Shown here: in pieces, positions 2,813-51,612 of the stretch
How positions within the stretch are numbered: the stretch's first letter is position 1
How the letters are laid out: each line of letters opens with the position of its first letter
NCBI GenBank assembly: GCA_964540285.1
Contig: CAZILW010000001.1
Span: forward strand, 63,703 to 127,702
Length of the DNA: 64,000 nt
Reading direction: 5' to 3'
Source: an uncultured Gammaproteobacteria bacterium
GTDB lineage: Bacteria > Patescibacteriota > Patescibacteriia > Patescibacteriales > UBA12465
Program-made: the position numbers and the translations under genes
Notes under the pieces: generated by a model
Databases searched by the model: none
The model's input: only the letters and a program-made list of their open reading frames with translations
Told to the model about the DNA's origin: nothing

Positions 2813-4582
2813 TTATTTCCTCTCTTTAATTTCCTTTGAAATCATTTCGAAAAAATCATCAGATGAGAAAATTTCAGTATCATTTCCCCCTCTCTTTCTA
2901 ACTGCAAAAATATTTTCCTCCATTTCTTTATCTCCAATAACCAAAACATAAGGAACTTTTTCAATAGTAGCTTTCCTGATTTTATTTCCCATGGTCTCAT
3001 TGTTAATATCCAGCTCAACTCTAATTCCCCTTTTCATAAATTCTTCTCTTGTTTTTTGACAATGATCTATATGCTTTTCTCCAACCGATAGAATCTTCAC
3101 CTGAACTGGAGATAGCCATACAGGAAAAGCTCCGGCAAAGTGCTCAATAAGCAAAGCTAAAAACCTTTCATAAGAACCAAGTATAGCTCTATGAACCATA
3201 ACTGGTGGTTTATCCTGACCATCTTTATCAGTATAACTTAAATTAAATCTTTTTGGTGTAGCAAAGTCAACCTGAACAGTTGGAATTTGGATTTCTTTAC
3301 CAATAGAATCTCTAAACATAAAGTCTAACTTTGGACCATATAAAGCTGCCTCTCCTTCTTGTCTTTTGGCTTTTAAATCCATCTCATCAGAAACCTCTTG
3401 GAGCATAGCCTCACAAACATCCCAATCTTCACTATCACCAATATATTTATCTGGATTAGCATAATCCCTCACTGACAAAGAAACCCAATGATTATCCCAC
3501 AGACCCAGCGCACAATAAAACTCCTTAATAATACTCACCATTCTTTTTATTTCATCTTTTACCTGGTCAATTGTGCAAAAAGTATGCCCATCTTCAACAG
3601 TAATGGCATAAACACGAGAAAGTCCTCCTACTTCGCCAGTTTTTTCTGCTCTATATTGCTTTTCTGATTCCATATATCTAATTGGCAAATCTCTATAAGA
3701 GCGAGTGCGAGAAGCATAAATTTGTGTTTGATGAGGACATTGAACTGGCTTCATAACCATTTGGTGCCCCTTAGCAGAAGAAACATGAAATAATTCATCG
3801 CTAAATTTTTTGGCATGACCAGAAAGCTCATATAAATCAATTTTAGCTAAATGAGGAGTCATGACCTTTTGAAAGCCATAAGAGCGACAAACAGACTCTA
3901 TATGATGACGAAGTTCATCAATAATAATCATGCCCTTAGGAGTAAACAAAGGAAGTCCTGGACCAACTAAATCAGAAAAGCAAAACAAATCTAATTCTTG
4001 TCCTAGTTTTCTATGGTCTCTCTTCTTGGCTTCTTCTACCATTTTTACATAATTATCTAACTCTTCTTTGGTGGAAAAAGATAGGCCGTAAATTCTAGTT
4101 AACATTTTATTTTTTTCATCACCACGCCAATAAGCACCAGCTAGCTTATCAAGTTTAAAAGATCCTAACTGAATTTTCCCGCTTGATTCAATGTGAGGGC
4201 CACGACATAAATCAATAAAATCTCCTAACTGATAAAAACTAACAATCTCCTCCCCTTCTGATTTTAGCTCTTTTAAAATATCGACCTTATAAACATCATC
4301 ACTTTTTTCAAATTTTGAAATAGCTTCGTCAATGTTCATTTCTGATCTAGTAAATTTCAAATTTTGCTTCACGATATGTTTCATTTTTTTTTCAATTTCA
4401 ACTAAATCACTATCTCCTATTTTTTGATCAAAAAAATCAATATCATAATAAAAGCCATTATCAATATCTGGTCCAATAGCAAATTTAGCCTGAGGATAAA
4501 TTTGCATTACGGCCAATGCCATAATGTGAGCCAAGGAGTGTCTTTGCATTTCTAGCTCACTTTTTTCATTTTTGTTTTCCAT
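2813..4582 (-). CDS. thrS: Threonyl-tRNA synthetase (lacks N-terminal TGS domain)
   Basis: 589 aa. Editing-domain HSLAHIMA..GFYYD motif, class II catalytic core and C-terminal anticodon-binding domain. Confidence 0.9.
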   Translation of the reverse strand: MENKNEKSELEMQRHSLAHIMALAVMQIYPQAKFAIGPDIDNGFYYDIDFFDQKIGDSDLVEIEKKMKHIVKQNLKFTRSEMNIDEAISKFEKSDDVYKVDILKELKSEGEEIVSFYQLGDFIDLCRGPHIESSGKIQLGSFKLDKLAGAYWRGDEKNKMLTRIYGLSFSTKEELDNYVKMVEEAKKRDHRKLGQELDLFCFSDLVGPGLPLFTPKGMIIIDELRHHIESVCRSYGFQKVMTPHLAKIDLYELSGHAKKFSDELFHVSSAKGHQMVMKPVQCPHQTQIYASRTRSYRDLPIRYMESEKQYRAEKTGEVGGLSRVYAITVEDGHTFCTIDQVKDEIKRMVSIIKEFYCALGLWDNHWVSLSVRDYANPDKYIGDSEDWDVCEAMLQEVSDEMDLKAKRQEGEAALYGPKLDFMFRDSIGKEIQIPTVQVDFATPKRFNLSYTDKDGQDKPPVMVHRAILGSYERFLALLIEHFAGAFPVWLSPVQVKILSVGEKHIDHCQKTREEFMKRGIRVELDINNETMGNKIRKATIEKVPYVLVIGDKEMEENIFAVRKRGGNDTEIFSSDDFFEMISKEIKERK

Positions 4583-4603: not shown

Positions 4604-4795
4604 AATAAAAAAATCTCGCTCTAATAAATACACAAAATGTACGTACTAGAACGAGATTTCTCCCGCGGTTCCATCTAGTTTCCTCAAAAGAGGCCACTTA
4701 ATTTTTATCAAACAAAACTTAGTTTTTACTGGTGTAAAAATTGCCCAAAGACAACTATGGTTGGTAGCCACAGCAATCGTTTTGATTGATAAGTT
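4604..4795 (-). ncRNA. Candidate T-box riboswitch leader of thrS
   Basis: Minus-strand leader contains AACUAGAUGGAACCGCGGG (plus coordinates 4662-4682), matching the T-box core AGGGUGGNACCGCG including the UGGA bulge and ACCGCG. Its 3' half overlaps a terminator hairpin AAAUCUCGUUCUA/UAGAGCGAGAUUU followed by U7, ending about 20 nt before the thrS ATG. ACCA candidate specifier sites (Thr codon ACC) lie upstream. Confidence 0.5.
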
Positions 4796-4858
4796 TATTA
4801 TATAATAATCTTATAAGAAAAGCAAATAAGCCAAATTAAAAAAGTAATTTCAATAAAA

Positions 4859-5635: not shown

Positions 5636-5650
5636 ATTTTTAATAGTCTA

Positions 5651-5740
5651 ATCGCGTGGATACGGAACCCCGTGCCAGAACCCCGTGTCGCATAGCGACT
5701 ATACGGGGAAGACTATACGGGACGAATGTCTTTACGCGAC
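5651..5740. ncRNA. Candidate structured RNA element (GC-rich cloverleaf-like fold)
   Basis: GC-rich island in an AT-rich spacer. The closing helix tcgcgtg(5652-5658)/tacgcga(5733-5739) encloses three hairpins: acgg-aacc-ccgt (5662-5673); ccccgt[gtcgc-ata-gcgac]tat-acgggg (5681-5708); aagac-14nt-gtctt (5709-5732). Strand undetermined. Confidence 0.4.
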
Positions 5741-5780
5741 ATAATTTTTGGTATTAATTATATTAATATTTTTTTAGGGT

Positions 5781-5868
5781 ATTTAGGATAGTTAGGATAC
5801 TTAAGATAATTAGGATAAAAAAATATCCTAACACTCCTAAATATCCTAATAGTCTTAATAATCCTAAA
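5781..5868. repeat. Palindromic array of TTAGGATA / TATCCTAA octamers
   Basis: Three forward copies (5783, 5793, 5810) and three to four inverted copies (5825, 5843, 5861) symmetric about an A7 centre. It lies just 3' of the SDR gene stop and about 150 bp upstream of the pilin start. Confidence 0.6.
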
Positions 5869-5870
5869 AA

Positions 5871-6951: not shown

Positions 6952-9018
6952 TCAATTATACGTTTCAATATAAGCCACCGAAACTCCACCTGAAAAATTA
7001 CTATCCAAAGAGTAAAAAGAAGAAACTAGTTCACCTTTAACATTAAAAGCTCTTACATGAGGAGCTCCGCCCGGTCCAGCACCACAAATTATCTCATCTA
7101 TTCCATCCTTATTTAGATCTCCAATCGATAAATTAACTCCTCCTCTAAAATTCTCCCCGTAAGCCAATATTTTTTTTCTTTCTTTACCAAAATTATCAAA
7201 AATTTTAATTTCTGATAAACGTCCTGGTCCAGGAGAGGTTATTATTTCTTTTTTATTTTTAGTTTTTTGACCGTAAACATTAGCTACGGCTACTTTGACC
7301 CCACCATAAAAATTATTTTCATAAGCAAAAAACTGGCCTTTTAACTTAGCCTGATTATCAAAAATACGAACGTGAGGACCACCACCAACACCAGCTCCGG
7401 TTATAATTTCAGAAACTCCATCTCCATCAATATCACCAACAGCAACATTAACACCACCTCTAAATTTTTCATCATAGGCAAAAAACTGACCTTTTAAATT
7501 GCCACGAACATCAAAAATACGAACGTGAGGACCACCACCAACACCAGCTCCGGTTATAATTTCAGAAACTCCATCTCCATCAATATCACCAACAGCAACA
7601 TTAACACCACCTCTAAATTTTTCATCATAGGCAAAAAACTGACCTTTTAAATTGCCACGAACATCAAAAATACGAACGTGAGGACCACCACCAACACCAG
7701 CTCCGGTTATAATTTCAGAAACTCCATCTCCATCAATATCACCAACAGCAACATTAATTCCCCCACGAAAAGAGTCATCATAAACGTTAAAATTGTTTAA
7801 AAGTTTGCCCTTATTATTACTAAAACTTAAAGAATAAATATTTTTATCCGACTGATAACTTTTAACCTCAGCTTGAGGAGCGAACAAAAACATTCCTGAT
7901 AAATTTTGCCACTTTTCATCAGCCCATCTGGCGGAATTTAAAGCATTAACCCGGCCAATCCCTAATTGATCCTTATAAGAACTATTAAGAATATTAATAT
8001 CATCCGAACTTTTAAGTAAAATATCTAGCAATTCTCTTTGGTTTAATTTAGGGTTTATCTGCTTAATTAATCCTAGAGTTCCACTAACAACAGCGGCCGA
8101 CATAGAAGTTCCCGACCAATAGCCTTGATATTCTGAATATTTATTATTTTCTAAATCATAAAATGAAGTAGAAAAGAAACTAAGACCAGGAGCAGAAATA
8201 TCAACACACCTTGATCCATAGGATGAAAAACTTGCCTTTTGATCCATAGAATCTAAAGCTGAAACACCCAAAACAAAACTAGATGAATCATAAAAATCAA
8301 AACAAGCTGGATAACTCGAATTTTTATTTAAATTAAAATTATTATTTCCAACAGCCGAAACAACTATAACGCCAGCTCTATGAGCCCTCTTGATAGCATC
8401 CTCAAATCCCTGATTATAATCAGGCCCAGAAAAGCTCAAGTTTATAATATCAGCTCCGTTATTTACAGCATAATCAATCGCCCTAATAACATCATTAATC
8501 CTTCCCTCACCTTTTTCATTTAAAGCTCTAAGAGCCATAATCTTTGATTTACTAGCAATACCACTTATTCCCAAATCATTGTCGGTTCTAGCAGCTATTA
8601 TTCCAGAAATCATAGTTCCGTGATTTAAACCATCATCATTAGAGCTAGAAGATAATACGGGTCGAGGATTTGGTGTGTTTTCAACAAAATTCCAACCAAA
8701 AATATCATCTATAAAGCCGTTTCTATCATCATCTAGACCATTTTCAATTTCTAAATTATTAATCCAAATATTTCCATGCAAATCAGGATGATCAATATCA
8801 ACTCCCGAATCAATAACCGCTATAACAGGAGACTCGCCCCTAAGATCATAACCCCAAGTATAAGAAGCTCCTATTTTTTTTAAATACCATTGATTTTTAT
8901 AATACTCATCATTTGGTGATGAAAAAGTTTGAGCCTTAACTAAATTAAAATTAGATAAAAATAAAAAAAACGCTAAGAAAACTGCCGCTACTTTTTGTTT
9001 GGCTTTAAATCTTAGCAT
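6952..9018 (-). CDS. Secreted subtilisin-like serine protease (S8) with C-terminal FG-GAP repeats
   Basis: Signal peptide. Catalytic triad motifs VIDSGVD (Asp), HGTMISG (His), GTSMSAAVVSG (Ser). Five C-terminal repeats FRGGVNVAVGDIDGDGVSEIITGAGVGGGPHVR (FG-GAP with DxDGDG Ca-binding loop). Confidence 0.85.
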   Translation of the reverse strand: MLRFKAKQKVAAVFLAFFLFLSNFNLVKAQTFSSPNDEYYKNQWYLKKIGASYTWGYDLRGESPVIAVIDSGVDIDHPDLHGNIWINNLEIENGLDDDRNGFIDDIFGWNFVENTPNPRPVLSSSSNDDGLNHGTMISGIIAARTDNDLGISGIASKSKIMALRALNEKGEGRINDVIRAIDYAVNNGADIINLSFSGPDYNQGFEDAIKRAHRAGVIVVSAVGNNNFNLNKNSSYPACFDFYDSSSFVLGVSALDSMDQKASFSSYGSRCVDISAPGLSFFSTSFYDLENNKYSEYQGYWSGTSMSAAVVSGTLGLIKQINPKLNQRELLDILLKSSDDINILNSSYKDQLGIGRVNALNSARWADEKWQNLSGMFLFAPQAEVKSYQSDKNIYSLSFSNNKGKLLNNFNVYDDSFRGGINVAVGDIDGDGVSEIITGAGVGGGPHVRIFDVRGNLKGQFFAYDEKFRGGVNVAVGDIDGDGVSEIITGAGVGGGPHVRIFDVRGNLKGQFFAYDEKFRGGVNVAVGDIDGDGVSEIITGAGVGGGPHVRIFDNQAKLKGQFFAYENNFYGGVKVAVANVYGQKTKNKKEIITSPGPGRLSEIKIFDNFGKERKKILAYGENFRGGVNLSIGDLNKDGIDEIICGAGPGGAPHVRAFNVKGELVSSFYSLDSNFSGGVSVAYIETYN
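7290..7760. repeat. Perfect 153-bp tandem repeats (about 3 copies) inside the S8 protease gene
   Basis: Unit starting gaggaccaccaccaacaccagctccggttataatttcag recurs at 7374, 7527 and 7680 with 100% identity over two full units. Encodes identical 51-aa FG-GAP repeats. Confidence 0.85.
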
Positions 9019-16504: not shown

Positions 16505-19015
16505 TTAATTTAATAAAGTAGTAAAAGCAACAACATTACCATAAGAAATTCCCTTCTCGTTCACAGCATAAGCTCTGAAATAATAAGTCGTGTTAGGATG
16601 TAAAATATCAATAGTTTTGCTAAATACTGAATTATGATTGGTTATTCTAATAATATTTACATTGTTGGAGATATATTCAAGATTATTATGATCGGCCCAA
16701 ATAATTCCTCTGGCATAAACCGTACCACCTCCATTGGCCGTCACCTGACCATTTAATGTGGCTACATTAGCGGTCAAATTGGTAGCTGACTCAGTGGACA
16801 CGGTAGGAAGAGATATTGCAGGAAAGTCTTCTCCTTTTATGCACCTAACGGAAATGCCACTATAGTCGTACGCATTGTTATATATTGGATTAACGTCAGT
16901 ATTTGTTAAAATATAGTAACGAGTAGTGCTAAGAGTAGCAATTGATAATGTCCAAAAATTAGCCCGAGTTCCAATATAGGAAAAATTAGTCGTCTTAATT
17001 CCGGATGGTAAAATTGAAAAATTAAAATAATTAGTACCAACAGAAGAAGAATTGTCCCAACGAGGATGATCACTAACATTACAAACACCGCCTAAGGAAG
17101 AATCGACCATTCTACAAGATTTTAAGGTTAGAGAATTGTTTGATCCAATGGAATTATTAAGCTCAACAAAATCAGAGTAAAAAGGAACTCTCCATCCAGG
17201 CGGACAAATTCTTCTAGGGTCAGAAACGGCTAACATTGAATAAAGTTTTCCGTAGGATGCATAACTAGAATTATCCTCATAAAAAGTCCAAACAGGATAA
17301 TTTAAATTAGACCAAGAACCAGCCTGGTTTGTAATAGAATCTCCATTTCTAAATTTGTCCGTTCTTAGGTTTTCGGCGAGCCAACATTTAGTTCCAACAC
17401 CTATTGTTTGATAAATGTATCCGTTGTAATCAACTGCATAACTCCCAACACAAGGATCTAGGGTAGTAAAAGCAACAACATTACCATAAGAAATTCCCTT
17501 CTCGTTCACAGCATAAGCTCTGAAATAATAAGTCGTGTTAGGATGTAAAATATCAATAGTTTTGCTAAATACTGAATTATGATTGGTTATTCTAATAATA
17601 TTTACATTGTTGGAGATATATTCAAGATTATTATGATCGGCCCAAATAATTCCTCTGGCATAAACCGTACCACCTCCATTGGCCGTCACCTGACCATTTA
17701 ATGTGGCTACATTAGCGGTCAAATTGGTAGCTGACTCAGTGGACACGGTAGGAAGAGATATTGCAGGAAAGTCTTCTCCTTTTATGCACCTAACGGAAAT
17801 GCCACTATAGTCGTACGCATTGTTATATATTGGATTAACGTCAGTATTTGTTAAAATATAGTAACGAGTAGTGCTAAGAGTAGCAATTGATAATGTCCAA
17901 AAATTAGCCCGAGTTCCAATATAGGAAAAATTAGTCGTCTTAATTCCGGATGGTAAAATTGAAAAATTAAAATAATTAGTACCAACAGAAGAAGAATTGT
18001 CCCAACGAGGATGATCACTAACATTACAAACACCGCCTAAGGAAGAATCGACCATTCTACAAGATTTTAAGGTTAGAGAATTGTTTGATCCAATGGAATT
18101 ATTAAGCTCAACAAAATCAGAGTAAAAAGGAACTCTCCATCCAGGCGGACAAATTCTTCTAGGGTCAGAAACGGCTAACATTGAATAAAGTTTTCCGTAG
18201 GATGCATAACTAGAATTATCCTCATAAAAAGTCCAAACAGGATAATTTAAATTAGACCAAGAACCAGCCTGGTTTGTAATAGAATCTCCATTTCTAAATT
18301 TGTCCGTTCTTAGGTTTTCGGCGAGCCAACATTGATTACCTATAACAACAGTTTTATAATTATAACCATTATAAACAATACTTTGACCACAATTTAAAGA
18401 GTCAACAACACATTCACCACCCTGACAAACATAACCATTATTACAAGATGGCTCACATAAATACTGGGAATCTATCAAATCAAAACTATTGTTAGTTTCT
18501 TCGCCACTATTGTTCTGATCACCAGGCTCATCACCGCCACCATTATTATCACCACCACTATTATCTCCCAAGCAGTCATAATTCATTATACCTCCAGGAG
18601 TAGCACATTTTAAACCTTCAGATAGGTTAGAGACATCATTTCCTAGACAAAATGATAAAGTGTAGGTAGAATTATCTTCGCTTACTTGATAGTAGAAGTT
18701 ATTTTGACTGGCATCACATACTCCATCAGCTGGATAAGGAGCAGAAGGAATATTATACATAAGTACTTGACCACTGGAAGTAATAAGAGAACCGCTTAAC
18801 CATTCTTCTTCAGTAGGATATCTTCCCTGTTCATTAAAAAATAATTCTAGGGCTGTTTGAGCTTGTTTTATATCAGCTAGTCTTTTACTATCACGAGCTC
18901 TAGAGCGAGCTTGTTGTAGGGCTACCACAGCTAGAGTAGCAAGTATTCCAATAATAGCTATTACTACTAATAACTCGACGAGAGTGAAGGCTTTTTTATA
19001 CTTTATTGGATTCAT
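16505..19015 (-). CDS. Prepilin-N-terminus protein fused to two FISUMP domains and Fn3-like modules
   Basis: N-terminus [20 protein letters not shown] (prepilin motif); Gly/Asp/Asn-rich linker. Two 315-aa repeats each contain CWLAENL...GKLYSMLAV...CPPGWRVP...SVRCIK, which matches the TIGR02145 FISUMP domain pattern. Confidence 0.8.
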   Translation of the reverse strand: MNPIKYKKAFTLVELLVVIAIIGILATLAVVALQQARSRARDSKRLADIKQAQTALELFFNEQGRYPTEEEWLSGSLITSSGQVLMYNIPSAPYPADGVCDASQNNFYYQVSEDNSTYTLSFCLGNDVSNLSEGLKCATPGGIMNYDCLGDNSGGDNNGGGDEPGDQNNSGEETNNSFDLIDSQYLCEPSCNNGYVCQGGECVVDSLNCGQSIVYNGYNYKTVVIGNQCWLAENLRTDKFRNGDSITNQAGSWSNLNYPVWTFYEDNSSYASYGKLYSMLAVSDPRRICPPGWRVPFYSDFVELNNSIGSNNSLTLKSCRMVDSSLGGVCNVSDHPRWDNSSSVGTNYFNFSILPSGIKTTNFSYIGTRANFWTLSIATLSTTRYYILTNTDVNPIYNNAYDYSGISVRCIKGEDFPAISLPTVSTESATNLTANVATLNGQVTANGGGTVYARGIIWADHNNLEYISNNVNIIRITNHNSVFSKTIDILHPNTTYYFRAYAVNEKGISYGNVVAFTTLDPCVGSYAVDYNGYIYQTIGVGTKCWLAENLRTDKFRNGDSITNQAGSWSNLNYPVWTFYEDNSSYASYGKLYSMLAVSDPRRICPPGWRVPFYSDFVELNNSIGSNNSLTLKSCRMVDSSLGGVCNVSDHPRWDNSSSVGTNYFNFSILPSGIKTTNFSYIGTRANFWTLSIATLSTTRYYILTNTDVNPIYNNAYDYSGISVRCIKGEDFPAISLPTVSTESATNLTANVATLNGQVTANGGGTVYARGIIWADHNNLEYISNNVNIIRITNHNSVFSKTIDILHPNTTYYFRAYAVNEKGISYGNVVAFTTLLN
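16518..18333. repeat. Two tandem copies of a 945-bp unit with about 870 bp of 100% nucleotide identity, inside the pilin-FISUMP gene
   Basis: Copy A 16518-17388 is identical to copy B 17463-18333 (offset 945). The identical false ORFs 16906..17088 and 17851..18033 reflect this duplication. Confidence 0.9.
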
Positions 19016-26076: not shown

Positions 26077-26148
26077 ATTTTACAATCATATAAATAAAAC
26101 GAACATTAAGTTCGTTTTATTTTATGAGAATTATTTTTTAGATAAAAA

Positions 26149-27658: not shown

Positions 27659-27845
27659 ATTTTTCTTTTTTGGTTTATTAATATTGATAATTCAAATATT
27701 AACAAACTCCTACTGCTTTCTATATTTATAAGAAAAATGCAGAAAGCATGATTTTTTAAATTATAAAAATGCTCAAAACAGGTAGTTTTAAGCCTATTTT
27801 AATTATATATTATTTTATATTTTGAGTCAATATTAAAAGAATCTA

Positions 27846-30078: not shown

Positions 30079-30124
30079 AAGAAATAGTCATTAAGTATTA
30101 TGCTGTTATTATACTAAAATGACA

Positions 30125-30160
30125 ACAAAAAAACAAGGAAGTTGTCCTTGTTTTTTCTAT
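30125..30160 (-). terminator. Rho-independent terminator after secY
   Basis: caagga-agttg-tccttg hairpin with U7 tail on the minus strand, 10-40 nt 3' of the secY stop. Confidence 0.65.
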
Positions 30161-30171
30161 TTTTGAAAGAA

Positions 30172-36502: not shown

Positions 36503-36614
36503 ATTTTTTGTTTAAGACTCTTGAGATCACCGAGATCCTTAGATTGCTTTTTTAATTTTATTTTAAAAGTTATTTAAGAATCTTGATAAGTTCAAGAATC
36601 TTGATAATCATAAA

Positions 36615-41655: not shown

Positions 41656-41739
41656 ATGGATTTACGATTAAATGTGCAAAAATTTAAAAGATCTTCTTAC
41701 TATATGCACATTTTAATTTTATATTTTATTTTAAATTAT

Positions 41740-41792
41740 AAATTATTTTAAATAAACATTATAAGCCCGTCTTTTTTCAAAAACGGGCCTAA
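41740..41792 (-). terminator. Candidate terminator after tuf
   Basis: gcccgt/acgggc stem (41765-41788) with a U-rich 3' flank on the minus strand, directly 3' of the tuf stop. Confidence 0.45.
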
Positions 41793-41796
41793 ATAT

Positions 41797-43457: not shown

Positions 43458-44615
43458 TTAATAATTAATATAAATATTTTGATAATCATGATTATATAAT
43501 TGTAAAATTTCATCAGCGCTTAAAACTCGATTATAAATTCTCGTCCTACCAATCTCACCTAAAAAATTCCAAGGATTTCCACCTATAATACCATTGCCCC
43601 AACTACCTGAGCCAAAGGTCAAGTCATTTATATTATCAATTTTTGCATATTCATTTAAAATTTTAGTACTCCAATTTTGTCCATTTAAATAGAAGCTAAA
43701 TACTTGACTTTGCCCAGTTCCACTGTAGGTCATAACCGCCTGATACCAGTCATTCAAATCTATTGAGTATCGATCTGTTATTCTATGAATACCGTCACCC
43801 CTAATAACAGCATAAATATCTATAATATTTGTTGTCAAATTATTATATTGAATATTTATTCCAAAACCAGTTCCACCTTTACCTTTAGAAACAACCCCAG
43901 CATTTCTACTATAAACATCATCCAAACAAATTTCATTCATTTTCATCCAGGTAACTATAGTAAAGTCATCGTATGTGCCAAAATCAAATTCATTTCCCTC
44001 TTGATAATAAGCTCTAGCCAATATATTCCCACTCGGAGAATTTCCGGAATATTTTGGTTTTATAGAATAAGGATTAAAACCCCAAATAGTATTATTTCCA
44101 ACAAAAACATCATTATTTCTAGTATAGTCAAAGGCTGTTTGTCCCTCACCTTCGTCAAACTTCCAAAAGCCAACTAAACCATCTACAATAACTTTTTCAT
44201 GACAATCATCATGCACAACATCATTAGAGTCAAGACATTTTAAGCCAGAACTATAATTATCAATACTTCCCTCCAAAAAAAATTCTAAACTATAATAATC
44301 ATTTTTTAAATCTTTATAATAAATAATGTTACTGGGAATATTATTATAAAAAACACTACCATTAGATCCAATAATCTGACCACCACCCTCAATAACCTCT
44401 GTGTCCGGATACCCTCCCTCTATCATCTTGTAGGCCTCGAGTGCCATTTGAAACTCTTTTATTTCCGATAAAACTTTTTTATCCCTAGCTGACCTTTTAA
44501 TAACATTAACTGAGGCAATAGCTACGGTTGTTACTAAAGAAATAATTAAAATAACAATTATAAGCTCTATAAAAGTGAAGGCTCTTCTTTTGTTGTTTTT
44601 AAAAAGAAAACTCAT
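43458..44615 (-). CDS. Prepilin-N-terminus protein fused to LamG/ConA-like lectin domain
   Basis: N-terminus KRRAFTFIELIIVILIISLV. C-terminal GEIGRTRIYNRVLSADEILQLYN is the Laminin_G_3 (PF13385)-type ending. Confidence 0.8.
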   Translation of the reverse strand: MSFLFKNNKRRAFTFIELIIVILIISLVTTVAIASVNVIKRSARDKKVLSEIKEFQMALEAYKMIEGGYPDTEVIEGGGQIIGSNGSVFYNNIPSNIIYYKDLKNDYYSLEFFLEGSIDNYSSGLKCLDSNDVVHDDCHEKVIVDGLVGFWKFDEGEGQTAFDYTRNNDVFVGNNTIWGFNPYSIKPKYSGNSPSGNILARAYYQEGNEFDFGTYDDFTIVTWMKMNEICLDDVYSRNAGVVSKGKGGTGFGINIQYNNLTTNIIDIYAVIRGDGIHRITDRYSIDLNDWYQAVMTYSGTGQSQVFSFYLNGQNWSTKILNEYAKIDNINDLTFGSGSWGNGIIGGNPWNFLGEIGRTRIYNRVLSADEILQLYNHDYQNIYINY

Positions 44616-44640
44616 ATTCTATATTAATTAATAAATAAAA

Positions 44641-45840
44641 TTAATTTTGATAGTATTCTTTAATATTGTTATACAAACCAAAAACCTCTTCCGCTGATAA
44701 AGGCTTATTAAAATACATTGCATCGTTTATACGACCTTGAAAATAGGATTCGGTAGTGCTACCACCCTTGCCTAGAAACATAGGCTTGTCAGTTCCTATA
44801 TTCATCACGGTATTTTCGATTTCAGATATCAACTGACCATTCTTGTAAAATCTACGAAAATAACCATCATCAGTTAAAACAATAAAATGCCAACCATCTG
44901 GGTATTTACTTAAAACATAATCTTCTATGGACCACCATTGCCTGTCAACAGAATCAATTGAATTTTGACTAGCAATTTTACCAGAATAAAGGGCTAGTCC
45001 CCAACGACCCAAACTCAAACCAGTACCCCACAACAATCCTCCTGAACCCTGTGGTTTTGTACCATCCAACCAAAGAGCTAAAGAATATTCTGTTTGTTTT
45101 GGCATTGTTGAAATATTAAAAAAATCATCAACTCCATCGAAATAAACAAAGCCGTCAATTAGTTTAGGCTGCAAGTCAATATTAGATTGTTCAGCATTTT
45201 TTCTTTGATAAGAAAGGTCAAAGATTGTTTGAACCATTTCACTGTTATCAGGATTAAGCTTAACCCCACCATCAGAAGACAAAAAGAGAATTAAATTATT
45301 ATAAATGTTGCTATTTTGAAAATAACTAAACAAATTATAAGTCTTACCTCTATTTAAGATGACTCCATTCCCACTACTAACAAAATCTAAATAATCCAAA
45401 CAGGCGCCTCGACAACAAGAAAAGTCAAAAATACCAGCAGAACTAAAACATTTATTTCCAGGACTAAAATTTTCATTAAAATTTTCAACCTCTAAAGCAA
45501 TATCATAACTTAAATCCGAAGAATTAAAAAAATAATCAACACCCTCAGGAATGTTTTCTAAAAAAATTAAACCAGAAGAACTACCAACAAGAGCTTGTCC
45601 CGAAATCAATTGTTCAGGATATCTGCCTTCAACATTTTTATAACTCTCTAAGGCTATTTGAACTTGGCTTATATCGTTAATTTTTTTTAAATCTTTACCT
45701 CTACTTCTAGACCTAGAAATGTTAACCATCACTAAAGTAGAAATTAAAGCAATGATAAAAACGACCACTAAAATTTCAATAAAGGTAAAAGCCTTTTTGT
45801 TTTTAAATAGATAAATATTCATATCGTTAATATAAAACAA
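44641..45840 (-). CDS. Prepilin-N-terminus protein fused to LamG/ConA-like lectin domain (paralogue)
   Basis: N-terminus KKAFTFIEILVVVFIIALIS; C-terminus GRINDAMYFNKPLSAEEVFGLYNN. Confidence 0.8.
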   Translation of the reverse strand: MFYINDMNIYLFKNKKAFTFIEILVVVFIIALISTLVMVNISRSRSRGKDLKKINDISQVQIALESYKNVEGRYPEQLISGQALVGSSSGLIFLENIPEGVDYFFNSSDLSYDIALEVENFNENFSPGNKCFSSAGIFDFSCCRGACLDYLDFVSSGNGVILNRGKTYNLFSYFQNSNIYNNLILFLSSDGGVKLNPDNSEMVQTIFDLSYQRKNAEQSNIDLQPKLIDGFVYFDGVDDFFNISTMPKQTEYSLALWLDGTKPQGSGGLLWGTGLSLGRWGLALYSGKIASQNSIDSVDRQWWSIEDYVLSKYPDGWHFIVLTDDGYFRRFYKNGQLISEIENTVMNIGTDKPMFLGKGGSTTESYFQGRINDAMYFNKPLSAEEVFGLYNNIKEYYQN

Positions 45841-45859: not shown

Positions 45860-45910
45860 TAATTAAAACAAAAAACGGAGCTCTGTTATTTGCTCCGTTT
45901 TTTATTTTCA
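45860..45910 (-). terminator. Rho-independent terminator after fusA
   Basis: acggagc-tctgttattt-gctccgt hairpin (45875-45898) with U-tract on the minus strand (a T-tract on the plus strand too). Confidence 0.65.
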
Positions 45911-45921
45911 ATTTTTGTAAA

Positions 45922-48006
45922 TTATTTACCAGCCTTTTCCTTGATTTGCTCTAAAATATTTCTTGGAACTTCATTATAATGAGAAAATTCCATTGAATAA
46001 TTAGCCCTACCTTGACTCATTGATCTTAGAGATGTTGCATAACCAAACATTTCTGCTAGAGGAACTTTAGCTAAAACAACTTTAGCATTTCCTCTGTCAG
46101 TCATTTCTTCTATTTGACCTCTCTTGGCATTTAAATCTCCGATTATATTCCCCATGTATTCTTCTGGGGTAGTAACCTCGACCTTCATAACTGGTTCAAG
46201 TAAAACTGGGCTAGCCTTTTGACAAGCATCTTTGAAGGCAAAAATAGCAGCCATTTTAAAAGCGATTTCAGAAGAGTCTACCTCGTGATAAGAACCATCA
46301 TAAACAGTAACTTTAACATCAACCATTGGATAACCAGCTAAAATACCACTCTCCATAGCTTCTTTAACACCCTTTTCAATAGCTGGGATATATTCCCTTG
46401 GAATAGCACCGCCCTTTACCTCATCAACAAATTCATAAGTTTTTCCACCTTCATTAACTTGCGGTTCTAATCTTAAATAACAATGTCCGTATTGACCACG
46501 ACCACCAGATTGTTTAGCATACTTATGCTCAGCCTCAGCTTTTTGCTTAATAGTTTCCCTGTAAGAAACTTGAGGATTTCCAACATTAGCCTCAACTCCA
46601 AACTCTCTTCTCATGCGATCAACGATGATATCCAAGTGAAGCTCTCCCATACCAGAAATCAAAACTTGTCCGCTTTCTTCATCACTTTCAACTCTAAAAG
46701 TTGGGTCTTCTTCAGCTAGTCTATTTAAAGCAATACCCATTTTTTCTTGATCAGCCTTAGTTTTTGGCTCAACAGCAATCTTAATGACTGGCTCTGGGAA
46801 AACAATTGATTCAAGTAATAAAGATTTTTTCTCATCACATAAAGTATTTCCAGTTGTAGTGTCTTTTAGTCCAATAACAGCAGCGATATCTCCTGCTTTG
46901 ATTTCTTTAATTTCTTCTCTGTGATTAGCATGCATACGAACTAAACGACCAATTCTTTCTTTATTGCCAGTAGAAGAATTAACAATATAAGAACCAGAAC
47001 TCAAAACTCCACTGTAAACCCTAACAAAACAAAGCTTACCAACAAAAGGGTCAGTGGCAATTTTAAAAGCCAAACCAACAAAAGGCTCTTTTTCATCAGG
47101 CTTAACAATTGTTTTTTTAGTTTCATCATTAACATCAGTAGCTTCTATCTCTGGAACATCAAGAGGTGAGGGTAAATAATCACAAACAGCATCAAGAGCT
47201 TTTTGAACACCAATATTTTGTAAAGCTGTTCCACATAAAACAGGATAGATTCCATTAGATATAACCCCCCTTCTTAAAGCTGATTTCAATTCTTCAACAG
47301 TAATTTGCTCACCACTTAAATATTTTTCAGTTAAAGTATCGTCAAATTCAACAACTCTTTCAACCAATTCTCCATGATACTTTTCAACCTTATCAATCAT
47401 ATCAGCTGGGATTTCAGTTTCAATTATATTCTCGCCAAAATTTCCTTCGAACTTATAAGCCTTTTTTTCTAAAACATCAATAACTCCAGAAAAAGTACTT
47501 TCAGAACCAATTGGCAATTGATAAGCAACAGCTTTTGGATTTAATCTTTTTTTAATAGAGTCCAAGCTCATATAAAAATCAGCGCCAGTTTTATCCATCT
47601 TATTAACAAAACAAAGTCTTGGAACTTTATACTTATCAGCTTGACGCCAAACAGTTTCCGATTGAGGCTCTACACCTTGAGAACCATCAAAAACAGCAAT
47701 AGCACCATCTAAAACACGAAGTGATCTTTCAACTTCTACAGTAAAATCAACGTGTCCAGGAGTATCAATTATGTTTATCTTATTATCCTTCCAAAAACAA
47801 GTTGTGGCAGCTGAAGTAATAGTAATACCTCTTTCTTTTTCTTGTTCCATCCAATCCATATCAGCGGCTCCATCATGAGTTTCTCCGATTTTATGTTTTT
47901 TACCAGTATAAAAAAGAACTCTCTCGCTAAAAGTTGTTTTTCCGGCATCAATATGAGCCATGATACCAATGTTTCTAAATTTATCCAGCGTATAATCTTG
48001 CGACAT
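45922..48006 (-). CDS. fusA: Elongation factor G
   Basis: [17 protein letters not shown] and full five-domain EF-G; 694 aa. Confidence 0.95.
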
Positions 48007-48093
48007 ATGTTATTTAAAGAGTTTTAAGAGTTTTAGTACTTTCAAGACTCTTAGGATACTTATATTTAATTATTATATTATATATTTAATTCT

Positions 48094-48314
48094 ATATTTT
48101 GAGTGAAATTTGAGGAAAAGACGAGAAGCGAAGTGAGTCGTATTTTAATACGATGAACGAGCCTCGCAGTCTTTGACAAAAAATTTCACCAAAACTTTTT
48201 CTCCTAAAACTTTATATTTTGAGTGAAATTTGAGGAAAAGACGAGAAGCGAAGTGAGTCGTATTTTAATACGATGAACGAGCCTCGCAGTCTTTGACAAA
48301 AAATTTCACCAAAA
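48094..48314. repeat. Two tandem copies of an ~101-bp hairpin-forming element (18-bp spacer) between rpsG and fusA
   Basis: Copy 1 48094-48194 and copy 2 48213-48314 are identical. Each has terminal inverted repeats gtgaaattt/aaatttcac and an internal tcgtat-ttta-atacga hairpin. Confidence 0.85.
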
Positions 48315-48326
48315 TTTAAAGTTTTA

Positions 48327-48794
48327 CTATCTGGAGAAATGAGCAAATGCCTTATTAGCCTCCGCCATCTTATGAACAGTTTCTCTCTTTCTAACAGCCG
48401 CACCCTCTCCGTTTGATGCATCTAAAATTTCAGCGGCTAGTTTTTCAGCCATTGATTTTCCTTTTCTGTCTTTAGCGGCTGAAATAATCCAATTACAACC
48501 AAGATAAAACCTTCTCTCCCCCCTTACTTGAAAAGGAACTTGATAGTTGGCACCACCAACTCTTTTACCTCTAACTTCAAGCAATGGAGACACTTTTTTT
48601 AAAGCTTTATTAAAAATATGTCTTGGATCGTGCTTGGTTTCTTGACGAATTAAATCAAAAGCATCATAAGTAATCTTTTGAGCTACTGATCTTTTACCAT
48701 CAACCATAACGTAATTTATAAATTTGGCAATATTTTTATCACCATATTTTAAATCATTTTCTATTTTTCTTTTTGGAGCTTGTTTACCTCTCAT
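48327..48794 (-). CDS. rpsG: 30S ribosomal protein S7
   Basis: S7 fold sequence. Confidence 0.95.
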   Translation of the reverse strand: MRGKQAPKRKIENDLKYGDKNIAKFINYVMVDGKRSVAQKITYDAFDLIRQETKHDPRHIFNKALKKVSPLLEVRGKRVGGANYQVPFQVRGERRFYLGCNWIISAAKDRKGKSMAEKLAAEILDASNGEGAAVRKRETVHKMAEANKAFAHFSR

Positions 48795-48858: not shown

Positions 48859-49278
48859 TTAAGCCTTTGGTTTTTTAGCACCATAACAACTTCTTCCCTG
48901 TCTTCTAGCTTCAACACCTTGAGCATCATAAACTCCACGAACAACTTTATATCTAACACCTGGTAAATCTTTTGTTTTTCCACCCTTAATAAGAACGATT
49001 GAGTGTTCTTGTAAGTTATGTCCCATTCCAGGAATATAGGCAGTCACCTCCATACCATTTGATAAACGAACACGAGCAATTTTACGTAAAGCTGAGTTCG
49101 GCTTCTTAGGGGTCATGGTAGTAACCTTAAGACAAACACCCTGTTTAAAAGGAGAGCCACTTTTAGTAACTTTTTTCTTACGATGTAAAGAATCTAAGCT
49201 GGTACGCAATGCTAAGTTCTTTTTTCTCTTACTGGAAGGTTTTCTTCCTTTTCTAACTAACTGATTGATAGTTGGCAT
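48859..49278 (-). CDS. rpsL: 30S ribosomal protein S12 (with about 14-aa insertion near the N-terminus)
   Basis: [12 protein letters not shown] ... [10 protein letters not shown] ... GHNLQEHS ... DLPGVRY. Confidence 0.95.
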
Positions 49279-49371: not shown

Positions 49372-49403
49372 GAATTTAGCAAAAAAAAGATAATAAGTCA
49401 AGA
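49372..49403 (-). promoter_or_regulatory. Candidate sigma70-like promoter for rpsL
   Basis: On the minus strand, TTGACT (rc of 49398-49403), 17-nt spacer, TAAATT (rc of 49372-49377). Confidence 0.35.
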
Positions 49404-49410
49404 ATGCTAA

Positions 49411-51612
49411 TTATTCCTTAATACATCTAATATAACGACCATAAATAGAACTAATAGGCACAGTACTTGTCGTCAAAATTATTGATCCGCCAGTGTTGTA
49501 TATATAATACAAACCTGTCCCAAGATCGTCTATGGTTCTCGTCCAAAGCCAAAAACCACTTCCAAAATAAGGCCACTGTGTTGAATATTTATGACCACCA
49601 GGAAGCAAAGAAAAGCCAAGATCATCGGTGCCATAAACAGTATCAGATGCCCAATATGGATGCTCTGAAGTTACACATTCACCTCCCAAAGGAGAATTAA
49701 CTTGGCGACACGATCTTAAATTGTAAACATTATATGCACCAATACTGTTGACCAAAGAAATAAAATCATCTCTGGTTGGCACTATCCAGCCATCAGGACA
49801 AACCCCCCTAGGATCAATTATGGTATAAGAAGAATAAACATAACCATAAAGATTTCCATAAGTAGAAAGAAAGTCATACAAAGGATAATTCGCTCCACTC
49901 CAACTTCCAGTTACCCGAGGAATACTGTCACCATTTTTAAACTTATCAGTTTTAAGATTTTCTTTAAACCAGCATTGATCGCCGATAGCAACCGTTGGAT
50001 AATTATAACCATTATAAGAAACAGAACTTAAGCCCGAACAAGGATCTGTGGTTGTAAAAGAAAGAACATTGCCATAACCTACTCCAACTTCATTGACAGC
50101 ATAAGCTCTGATATAATAAGTTTTTCCAGCTTGAAGACCATAAAAAACATCAGAAACAAAAGAGGAGGAACTTAAAGTTGAATGTAAAAACTTTGAATTA
50201 CCATCACCGATTAAGGGATTATCATTTTCACTCCAGACAACACCACCAGAATGAACAGGAGATCCGCCATCATTACTTATTGTTCCCCCAGAAAAAGCTC
50301 TATTTGCTGAAACATTATTTACAACACCAGTAATAACGCTAGGGATGGTTTTAGGGCTAGTGTCTGTTTTTTTAATACATCTAATATAGCGACCATAAAT
50401 AGAGTCAATAGGAACAGTACTCGCCGTCGAAATTGTTGGTCCGCTTGTATTATATATATAATACAAGCTAGACCCAGTACTATTAGCAGTTGAAGTCCAA
50501 AGCCAAAAACCACTTCCAAAATAAGGCCACTGTGTTGAATATTTATGACCACCAGGAAGCAAAGAAAAGCCAAGATCATCGGTGCCATAAACAGTATCAG
50601 ATGCCCAATATGGATGCTCTGAAGTTGCACATTCACCTCCCAAAGGAGAATTAACTTGACGACACGATCTTAAATTGTAAACATTATACGTACCAATACT
50701 GTTGACTAAAGAAATAAAATCATCTCTGGTTGGCACTATCCAGCCATCGGGACAAACCCCTCTAGGATCGGTTATAGTATGAGATGAATAAACATAACCG
50801 TAAAGATTTCCATAAGTAGAAAAAAAATCATAAGCTGGATAATAAGAAGAATTACTATGATAAGAAATCCAAGAAGGTATAGTTGATCCCCAGCTTCCAG
50901 TTACCCGAGGAATACTGTCTCCATTTTTAAATTTATCAGTTTTAAGATTTTCTTTAAACCAGCATTGAGCTCCGATGCCTACTGTTTGGTAGGTGTGGCC
51001 GTTATAGGTGATATTTTGACCACATTCAAAAACATCAAGAACACAAGAACTGTTTTGACAAATATAACCAGACTGACAATCAGGATAACAAACATTGAGA
51101 TTTGGATTTTCATTATTATCTCCTCCTCCGGTGTCTCCGCCTCCAGTGTCTCCGCCTAGGCAATCATAATTCATTATTCCTCCAGGAGTAGCACATTTTA
51201 AACCTTCAGATAGGTTAGAAACATCATTGCCTAGACAAAATGATAAAGTGTAAGTAGAGTTATCTTCGCTTACTTGATAGTAGAAGTTATTTTGACTGGC
51301 ATCACATACTCCATCAGCCGGATAAGGAGCAGAAGGAATATTATACATCAGTACTTGACCACTTGAGGTAATAAGAGAACCACTTAACCATTCTTCTTCA
51401 GTAGGATATCTTCCCTGTTCATTAAAGAATAATTCTAGGGCTGTTTGGGCTTGTTTAATATCAGCTAGTCTTTTACTATCACGAGCTCTAGAGCGAGCTT
51501 GTTGTAAAGCTACAACAGCTAGAGTGGCCAGTATTCCAATAATAGCAATTACTACTAGAAGCTCAACGAGGGTAAAAGCTTTTTTGTTTTTTTGAAAATT
51601 GTTTTTAAACAT
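49411..51612 (-). CDS. Prepilin-N-terminus protein fused to two FISUMP domains (paralogue of 16505..19015)
   Basis: The first ~150 aa are nearly identical to 16505..19015. Two FISUMP units (CWFKENL...GNLYGYVYS...CPDGWIVPT...RCIK) are about 90% identical to each other. Confidence 0.8.
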   Translation of the reverse strand: MFKNNFQKNKKAFTLVELLVVIAIIGILATLAVVALQQARSRARDSKRLADIKQAQTALELFFNEQGRYPTEEEWLSGSLITSSGQVLMYNIPSAPYPADGVCDASQNNFYYQVSEDNSTYTLSFCLGNDVSNLSEGLKCATPGGIMNYDCLGGDTGGGDTGGGDNNENPNLNVCYPDCQSGYICQNSSCVLDVFECGQNITYNGHTYQTVGIGAQCWFKENLKTDKFKNGDSIPRVTGSWGSTIPSWISYHSNSSYYPAYDFFSTYGNLYGYVYSSHTITDPRGVCPDGWIVPTRDDFISLVNSIGTYNVYNLRSCRQVNSPLGGECATSEHPYWASDTVYGTDDLGFSLLPGGHKYSTQWPYFGSGFWLWTSTANSTGSSLYYIYNTSGPTISTASTVPIDSIYGRYIRCIKKTDTSPKTIPSVITGVVNNVSANRAFSGGTISNDGGSPVHSGGVVWSENDNPLIGDGNSKFLHSTLSSSSFVSDVFYGLQAGKTYYIRAYAVNEVGVGYGNVLSFTTTDPCSGLSSVSYNGYNYPTVAIGDQCWFKENLKTDKFKNGDSIPRVTGSWSGANYPLYDFLSTYGNLYGYVYSSYTIIDPRGVCPDGWIVPTRDDFISLVNSIGAYNVYNLRSCRQVNSPLGGECVTSEHPYWASDTVYGTDDLGFSLLPGGHKYSTQWPYFGSGFWLWTRTIDDLGTGLYYIYNTGGSIILTTSTVPISSIYGRYIRCIKE

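Follow-up and report, generated by a model that had tools for sequence, protein, structure and literature searches.

What purpose might be served by two identical hairpin units lying between the genes for ribosomal protein S7 and elongation factor EF-G, inside the core str operon of an uncultured bacterium? Homologues of its S7 protein place the organism among the Patescibacteria, close to Candidatus Falkowbacteria. Patescibacterial genomes are tiny and tightly packed, and to our knowledge hardly any of their regulatory RNAs have been characterised. In the window, by which we mean the whole 64,000-nucleotide stretch of DNA that was analysed (31% G+C), the rpsG–fusA spacer is 320 bp long (48007–48326). 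This is indeed unusually long, as the preliminary description of this DNA had claimed, for the corresponding spacer measures 21–33 bp in relatives lacking the element.

Tandem Repeats Finder reported a single array at 48093–48314 (score 444, period 120, 1.9 copies, 100% matches). Exactly 102 nt are repeated: 48093–48194 and 48213–48314 are identical throughout, and the identity breaks off abruptly at both unit borders. The two identical units had been recognised from the outset, although their length had been put at about 101 bp and their start at 48094 instead of 48093. A 52-nt core of the unit occurs exactly twice in the window, against 0.00 occurrences expected. Each unit contains the terminal inverted repeats and the internal hairpin of 6 bp with a 4-nt loop that had been noted earlier: the repeat GTGAAATTT/AAATTTCAC, which extends to 14 nt, is located at 48103–48111/48181–48189 and 48223–48231/48301–48309, and the apical hairpin TCGTAT-TTTA-ATACGA at 48138–48153 and 48258–48273. 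Beyond the earlier description, we found that the rpsG-proximal copy has an outer 10-bp stem (P1), giving a 122-nt hairpin whose start immediately follows the rpsG stop codon, in the window as in all other carriers of the element. The layout of the locus had been observed correctly except for the strand, which we corrected: rpsL, rpsG and fusA are all encoded on the minus strand (Table 1). Just upstream of the fusA ATG lies a small separate hairpin (arms 48017–48031 and 48038–48052, AAGAGT...ACTCTT), which is kept in the related loci L013 and L016 and shows a compensatory change in L012.

Table 1 Features of the str locus in the window, and rpsG–fusA spacers of related loci and assemblies (L numbers).
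Feature	Position or spacer length	Strand	Remarks
Promoter-like site upstream of rpsL	49373..49401	−	TTGACT-17-TAAATT, TG before second hexamer; consensus match only
rpsL (S12), first gene of transcription unit	48859..49278	−	PF00164
rpsG (ribosomal protein S7)	48327..48794	−	PF00177; stop codon TAG at 48327–48329
Extended 122-nt hairpin of copy A including 10-bp outer stem P1, TAAAACTTTA/TAAAGTTTTA	48205..48326	−	Inverted repeat; covariance model 151 bits
Hairpin unit copy A (rpsG-proximal, type T1), 102 nt	48213..48314	−	100% identity to 48093–48194
18-nt linker between units, sense AAGTTTTAGGAGAAAAAG	48195..48212	−	Homologous to A-rich linker of L018 and L028; missing from one-copy assemblies
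Hairpin unit copy B (fusA-proximal, type T1), 102 nt, without outer stem	48093..48194	−	Covariance model 133.8 bits
Remainder of spacer	48007..48092	−	AT-rich stretch and small hairpin just upstream of fusA ATG; AT-rich part resembles 30-bp L023 spacer
fusA (EF-G)	45922..48006	−	GTP_EFTU, EFG_III, EFG_IV, EFG_C
Canonical intrinsic terminator 3′ of fusA	45865..45897	−	CGGAGC...GCUCCG then UUUUUUGUUUU; example of terminators in this genome
Two-copy form, identical S7 (L001, L008; L003, L005, L010)	320 bp		L003, L005 and L010 break inside the repeat
One-copy form, identical S7 (L002, L006, L007, L009)	200 bp		One unit, no linker
L012/L030	327 bp		One intact copy and 5′ remnant
L013–L017	276 bp		One intact copy and 3′ remnant
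L018/L019	342 bp		Two intact but diverged copies and remnant
L028/L029	398 bp		Two intact and two partial copies
L027			Contig ends inside element; partial
L021, L023, L025, L136	21–33 bp		AT-rich, without element
L020	133 bp		Unrelated sequence

Folding of one unit gave a long imperfect hairpin, in agreement with the earlier prediction of such a stem-loop for each unit, with −28.8 kcal/mol for the minus-strand (sense) RNA (z −5.2) and −34.0 kcal/mol for the plus-strand RNA (z −5.7), and none of 200 shuffled sequences was as stable. The minimum free energy of the extended 122-nt hairpin was −37.0 kcal/mol as sense RNA and −44.4 kcal/mol as antisense RNA. In the rpsG-proximal copy the lower helix comprises P1 (10 bp), a 1×1 loop and P2 (15 bp, with one bulge), and it reaches the length at which RNase III-type processing is considered, at least 20 bp of near-continuous double-stranded RNA or about two turns; the distal copy has only P2. 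SRP RNA, 6S RNA, attC sites, K-turns, riboswitches and ribozymes were rejected as identities for the element, which is a single unbranched hairpin without an Rfam hit and in which no GNRA loop, R′/R″ boxes or K-turn geometry with a 3-nt bulge was found.

The promoter-like site before rpsL and the terminator after fusA place the element inside one transcription unit, and a scan of the sense strand of the rpsG–fusA spacer found neither a promoter-like site nor a terminator. Judging from these signals, the sense RNA of the element is almost certainly made, as part of the rpsL-rpsG-fusA transcript. The hairpin was rejected as an intrinsic terminator, as the spacer has no G+C-rich stem followed by a U-tract and canonical terminators are obvious elsewhere in the window. 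The neighbouring rpsL–rpsG spacer is 64 nt long, contains 12% G+C and is unstructured. A small open reading frame of 15 codons running into the unit (TTG GTG AAA ... TAA), with AGGAG in the linker, was likewise discarded, its frame and length not being conserved: the loop of the L013 copy carries an indel relative to it, and the AGGAG is confined to the linker of the window. Before fusA, no Shine-Dalgarno sequence was seen in the window or in the element-less relatives that were read, and a boxA-like sequence there (CUCUUUAA) was dismissed as it is not conserved in L012. The str operon is also split further downstream, where two pilin-like genes with an N-terminal methylation motif and a Laminin_G_3 domain lie between fusA and tuf (43458–45840, minus strand).

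By exact-protein look-up, we fetched the rpsG–fusA junctions of relatives (Table 1). The prospect that the element is a private indel, present only in this genome, fell away with this comparison, for the same place is occupied in related species. Carriers belong to five to six Falkowbacteria-like lineages of Patescibacteria, which have one or two intact copies, together with decayed remnants, at exactly this locus. The L020 insert (positions 1969–2101 of that locus) differs, with two TCAAAGATCTTAT copies around a G+C-rich segment. The rpsG–fusA junction seems prone to gaining structured inserts. In trees of rpsL, rpsG and fusA the carriers cluster, but the element-less L023 adjoins L018, a presence pattern that is compatible, on these sequences, with one gain and with L023 lying just outside the clade or having lost the element secondarily. 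Downstream of the array, the window has an AT-rich stretch similar to the spacer of L023, so that the array looks inserted between the stop codon and an old spacer. The extended element is bounded by TA on both sides, with TA also within the inverted repeat, and the empty site in L023 reads stop-TATAAAT. As part of the explanation that we favour below, we suggest with some reserve that the array arose once in the rpsG–fusA spacer of a genus-level clade and has since been kept by selection.

Selection on the element was examined in an alignment of eight copies (A1), which fall into subtype T1 (window copies A and B, L012_A, L013_A, L018_A and L028_B) and subtype T2 (L018_B and L028_A). The consensus hairpin has 34 pairs with 97.4% of cells paired, and 11 of these pairs carry changes on both sides with pairing kept, values that were reached in 0 of 500 column shuffles; when the 3′ partners were slid by 1–3 columns, only 0–1 double-change pairs appeared. 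P1 also covaries, with a C-G pair in the window, L018 and L028 that is U-A in L013. Between species, T1 copies are 0.90–0.96 identical to the window units, more than the 0.47–0.80 found at four-fold degenerate sites of rpsL, rpsG and fusA, which points to purifying selection on the sequence of the element; the rest of the spacer is barely alignable among relatives. Coding identity beside the element is not raised, making recent lateral import unlikely as the cause of this conservation. Paired and unpaired columns are conserved to a similar degree (0.92 and 0.90), the internal loop blocks UUUGUC/UUUCCU and CUG.GA/UUCUCG are invariant, and the blocks TTGACAAAAAA and GAGGAAAAGAC are unchanged in all eight aligned copies; this similar conservation and the invariant loops argue for a functional element and not for a decaying insertion. 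The hairpin is thus probably, as far as comparison of sequences can tell, a functional RNA structure rather than a jumping element. Three options had originally been offered, namely a duplicated cis-regulatory RNA, a processing site or a miniature inverted-repeat element (MITE); the compensatory changes, the slow evolution and the constant locus support a structured functional element and speak against the MITE.

The history of the array differs from the tandem duplication that had first been described. The window, L018 and L028 share the linker behind the first unit (AAAGTTTTAG and then an A-rich run), which makes the two-unit layout old. L018 and L028 each pair a T1 with a T2 unit, whereas in the window both units are T1 and are identical over exactly the length of the unit. 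The identical second unit is best read, from these sequences, as the product of gene conversion by the first unit within the old two-unit array: a fresh tandem duplication would have copied the linker too, and homologous linkers combined with a sharp end of unit identity are the signature of conversion. Of the earlier claim, the two identical units stand, but the array is old, and their identity looks like recent conversion and not like fresh duplication. Among assemblies with an identical S7, both a two-copy and a one-copy form occur, the one-copy contigs otherwise matching the window with 100% identity on either flank. The one-copy form may be the product of recombination between two identical units, or of assembler collapse; the one-copy assembly L006 is also without one copy of another internal repeat.

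The window holds other repeats as well. The Fib_succ_major/pilin-like gene upstream of rpsL (49411–51612) has an internal duplication of ~950 bp with ~90% identity and shares a 426-bp stretch of 94% identity with a paralogue at 16505–19015, and assemblies break or collapse here (L006). The subtilase/FG-GAP gene at 6952–9018 contains a 153-bp tandem repeat (7319–7757; 2.9 copies, 97% identical).

Which strand of the element acts is harder to decide. On context, the sense RNA is most likely the active molecule, with the antisense RNA a serious rival, in which a plus-strand hairpin RNA of ~100–120 nt, antisense to the str operon and built around tandem sheared G.A loops, might form double-stranded RNA with the str mRNA or act in trans. 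The plus-strand fold is the more stable in seven of the eight copies, and the consensus fold (alifold) is −30.2 kcal/mol on the plus strand against −24.1 kcal/mol on the sense strand. The sense unit is 60% pyrimidine (22% C, 14% G), and its helix irregularities comprise nine Y.Y against one R.R, with all four bulges being pyrimidines, so that 13 of the 14 non-transition irregularities are purine on the plus strand (binomial p = 0.002). There, the internal loops form four successive 5′-GA/5′-GA-type motifs (GA/GA, GAA/GA, GA/GCA and GAGGA/GACAAA); tandem G.A loops are a classic stabilising motif, and stable structured RNAs typically have loops rich in purines. On the same strand, the rpsG-proximal copies hold an invariant TTGACA, an 18-nt spacer and TAAAGT/TATAAT (a 12/12 match in L013), although this match points out of the element into rpsG. 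Against a plus-strand RNA, no conserved promoter was seen upstream of the element on that strand in the scan of the window or in the L012 and L013 spacers that were read; the rpsG-proximal copy is not followed by a U-tract terminator; and the neighbouring genes all lie on the other strand, which would set such a transcript head-on with a highly expressed operon. Counts of G-U versus C-A cells (12 versus 3 on the sense strand, 8 versus 6 on the plus strand) lean slightly towards the sense strand without discriminating between the two. Taken together, we consider an antisense RNA unlikely, if the most credible of the alternatives.

Is the element instead confined to this locus because it landed there once and remained as a passenger? 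An old selfish or neutral palindromic insertion of MITE type (Correia- or IS630-like, with a TA target) could have landed a single time behind rpsG and then multiplied on the spot through slippage or unequal crossing-over, without serving the cell. The terminal inverted repeats, of 14 nt in the unit, to which the proximal copy adds an outer repeat of 10 bp, would suit such an origin, as would the TA borders and an empty L023 site compatible with a TA target, the variation of presence and absence among close relatives, the variable copy number with truncated and decaying copies and with one-copy and two-copy assemblies of one strain, and the folding of both strands, as expected of a DNA palindrome. 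However, the element is found at one locus only in every genome piece examined. Copies of the unit were searched for, as had been recommended: no further copy was found in the 64-kb window by BLAST (7-nt words), by nhmmer or with a covariance model built from the eight copies (R1, filters off), nor in the flanks of the related loci, and an exact scan for the core in one genome for each of 185,579 species returned a single locus, again an rpsG–fusA spacer, on a 499,849-bp contig of the metagenome-assembled genome DAOMZR01. The same scan of JGI metagenomes returned one contig, a low count that is weak evidence because this collection is incomplete (the element-bearing JGI samples L003, L006 and L008 are known). 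A Pfam scan of the 40 longer open reading frames of the window revealed no transposase domain, and BLAST of phage and plasmid collections gave no match to the element. In viral contigs an exact 29-mer gave 0 hits, while a degenerate 17-mer gave 105, roughly the level of chance by a rough estimate; a viral origin was rejected, none of the 100 loci searched among these 105 fitting the covariance model. A cross-species identity of 90–96% beside four-fold sites that are near saturation cannot be neutral, and the 11 compensated pairs point to selection on pairing. A mere insertion without function is accordingly improbable, and the MITE that had been suggested earlier finds no dispersed copies, transposase or mobile-element match in these searches; the array may have originated in one ancient insertion of MITE type that had TA borders and was domesticated afterwards.

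Database and literature searches returned no counterpart of the element. Rfam 15 gave 0 hits at the gathering threshold over the 64 kb and, within the spacer at E ≤ 10, only noise, the best overlapping hit scoring 19.7 bits against a threshold of 94. A full-text search of the literature yielded nothing on an rpsG–fusA hairpin or on S7/EF-G leaders in these bacteria. Elsewhere in the window, a T-box leader that falls below the Rfam gathering cut-off (4644–4798, minus strand; 36 bits against a gathering score of 93, E = 5e-6) immediately precedes thrS (2813–4582).

Action at the level of DNA, as a palindromic protein site or cruciform, as the operator of a regulator of translation genes, or as an outward promoter (TTGACA-18-TAAAGT) antisense into rpsG, can be largely set aside: the invariance of TTGACAAAAAA and GAGGAAAAGAC, the persistence of TTGACA-like pieces even in remnants, the match flagged by the promoter scan at 48293–48322 (plus strand, 10/12 matches) and the enrichment of short AAGANTCTT palindromes in spacers adjoining translation genes would fit it, but a duplex DNA site needs no compensatory changes along a stem of ~34 bp, promoter-like matches are expected by chance in DNA of 31% G+C (7 found against 6.3 expected), and the second hexamer is missing from the fusA-proximal copies.

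The palindrome AAGANTCTT occurs 10 times in the window against 4.0 expected, and half of these sites are in spacers adjoining translation genes: 36514, 36576 and 36594 (in an unusual 112-bp rpsC–rplP spacer), 43302 (in a 425-bp spacer upstream of tuf) and 48044, the last being 45 nt upstream of the fusA ATG in the small hairpin described above. It may be a shared operator or RNA motif. Many further spacers also fold significantly better than shuffled sequences (z −4 to −7), among them 26077–26148, 27659–27845, 30079–30171, 36503–36614 and 41656–41796; canonical hairpin-plus-U-tract terminators are present in the first, third and last of these five, and 36503–36614 consists of AAGANTCTT-type palindromes. 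A further structured spacer (5636–5870; z about −6, 34% G+C) lies upstream of a pilin-like gene, where TTAGGATA-type 9-mer repeats form a long hairpin followed by a G+C-rich multi-hairpin segment, with no match in Rfam.

The reading that we favour, though tentatively, is that of a selected stem-loop that acts in cis within the rpsL-rpsG-fusA transcript, in processing, in stability or in protein binding. The two units would belong to a small array, bound to this locus, of a conserved stem-loop of ~100–122 nt, which is most likely transcribed within the rpsL-rpsG-fusA mRNA and would act there as a folded RNA. Its long A-U-rich lower helix could be a processing and stability determinant for a double-strand-specific nuclease of the RNase III type, and processing at this site would allow the S12/S7 and EF-G messages to have separate fates; in addition or instead, the invariant internal loops could be a docking site for a protein that reads their sequence. 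Both roles are suggested by the quasi-continuous lower helix of ~25 bp and the invariant loops, and RNase III could plausibly act on this helix as formed in the proximal copy. The array would grow and shrink by unequal recombination, and in this strain gene conversion would have made the second unit identical to the first, after which recombination between the units could have given rise to the one-copy form.

Several observations weigh against this explanation of a cis-acting sense RNA. The plus strand folds as well or better, the G-U versus A-C counts are indecisive, and irregularities that are almost all Y.Y on the sense strand are unusual for a protein-binding RNA. Close relatives without the element indicate that it is not essential, and since extra copies decay, only about one copy would seem to be required. 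Direct control of fusA translation initiation is disfavoured by the distance from the element to the fusA ATG, which varies from 86 to ~290 nt among carriers, and by the fusA-proximal sequence, which is not conserved in L028; for the same reasons a role of the element as a mask of the fusA start was rejected.

Among known systems, the closest functional analogies are, we infer, the RNase III hairpin of rplL–rpoB and the RNase III-processed Correia elements. In Escherichia coli, the rplL–rpoB intercistronic region contains an RNase III processing hairpin and an attenuator. Like the spacer studied here, it has ~300 nt with a long hairpin and lies between ribosomal-protein and non-ribosomal-protein genes of a translation operon, but the element has no sequence or Rfam relationship to it, and its spacer lacks an attenuator-type terminator. 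Correia elements (CREE/NEMIS) of Neisseria are long hairpins with a TA target that are cleaved by RNase III, with altered mRNA stability as the result. They are 100–155 bp long with terminal inverted repeats, intergenic and co-transcribed, so that size, hairpin shape, possible TA borders and in-operon position match; they differ in having hundreds of dispersed copies per genome, against one locus, vertical inheritance in one clade and strong constraint here. REP/BIME sequences (e.g. in malE–malF) are also intercistronic palindromes, able to shield upstream mRNA from 3′ exonucleases and so to cause differential expression within an operon, but REPs measure 20–40 nt, have hundreds of copies and are associated with RAYT transposases, whereas the present unit of 102–122 nt is found at one locus.

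In the str operon of E. coli, S7 binds a structured intercistronic RNA and affects fusA expression. The operon, rpsL-rpsG-fusA, is the same, and the element is, like a ribosomal-protein operator, a conserved structured RNA in the operon transcript; however, the site in E. coli occupies the rpsL–rpsG spacer and precedes the cistron that is regulated, while the hairpin described here is downstream of rpsG, and its distance of 86–290 nt from the fusA ATG does not place it at the ribosome-binding site of that cistron, as would be usual for such operators. By analogy, a function as S7 operator is conceivable, with an atypical position. Short matches to what we take to be helix 41 of E. coli 16S rRNA (GAGAAGCGA, CCUCGC) are on the antisense strand and in a different arrangement, and were left unused as evidence.

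The element is previously undescribed, but it belongs to a familiar kind, hairpins between the cistrons of a translation operon. What is unusual about it is an array at one locus with birth-and-death dynamics, and a strongly strand-biased loop composition. More speculatively, and with appreciable doubt, it could represent a new class of structured RNA confined to a clade of the Candidate Phyla Radiation (CPR), a one- or two-unit array behind rpsG that would be either a new, downstream-acting kind of control element for ribosomal proteins or EF-G, or an antisense hairpin RNA with stacked tandem G.A loops.

Its narrow distribution, in one small uncultured clade, limits the wider importance of the element. 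The locus also carries a caution, in that a perfect tandem repeat with inverted ends mimics a mobile element, where comparison across relatives reveals a locus-bound, selected structure with birth-and-death dynamics. For these bacteria, a spacer of 200–400 bp in the core str operon, holding an element that is more conserved than the flanking ribosomal-protein genes, offers a testable entry to the balance of S12 and S7 against EF-G.
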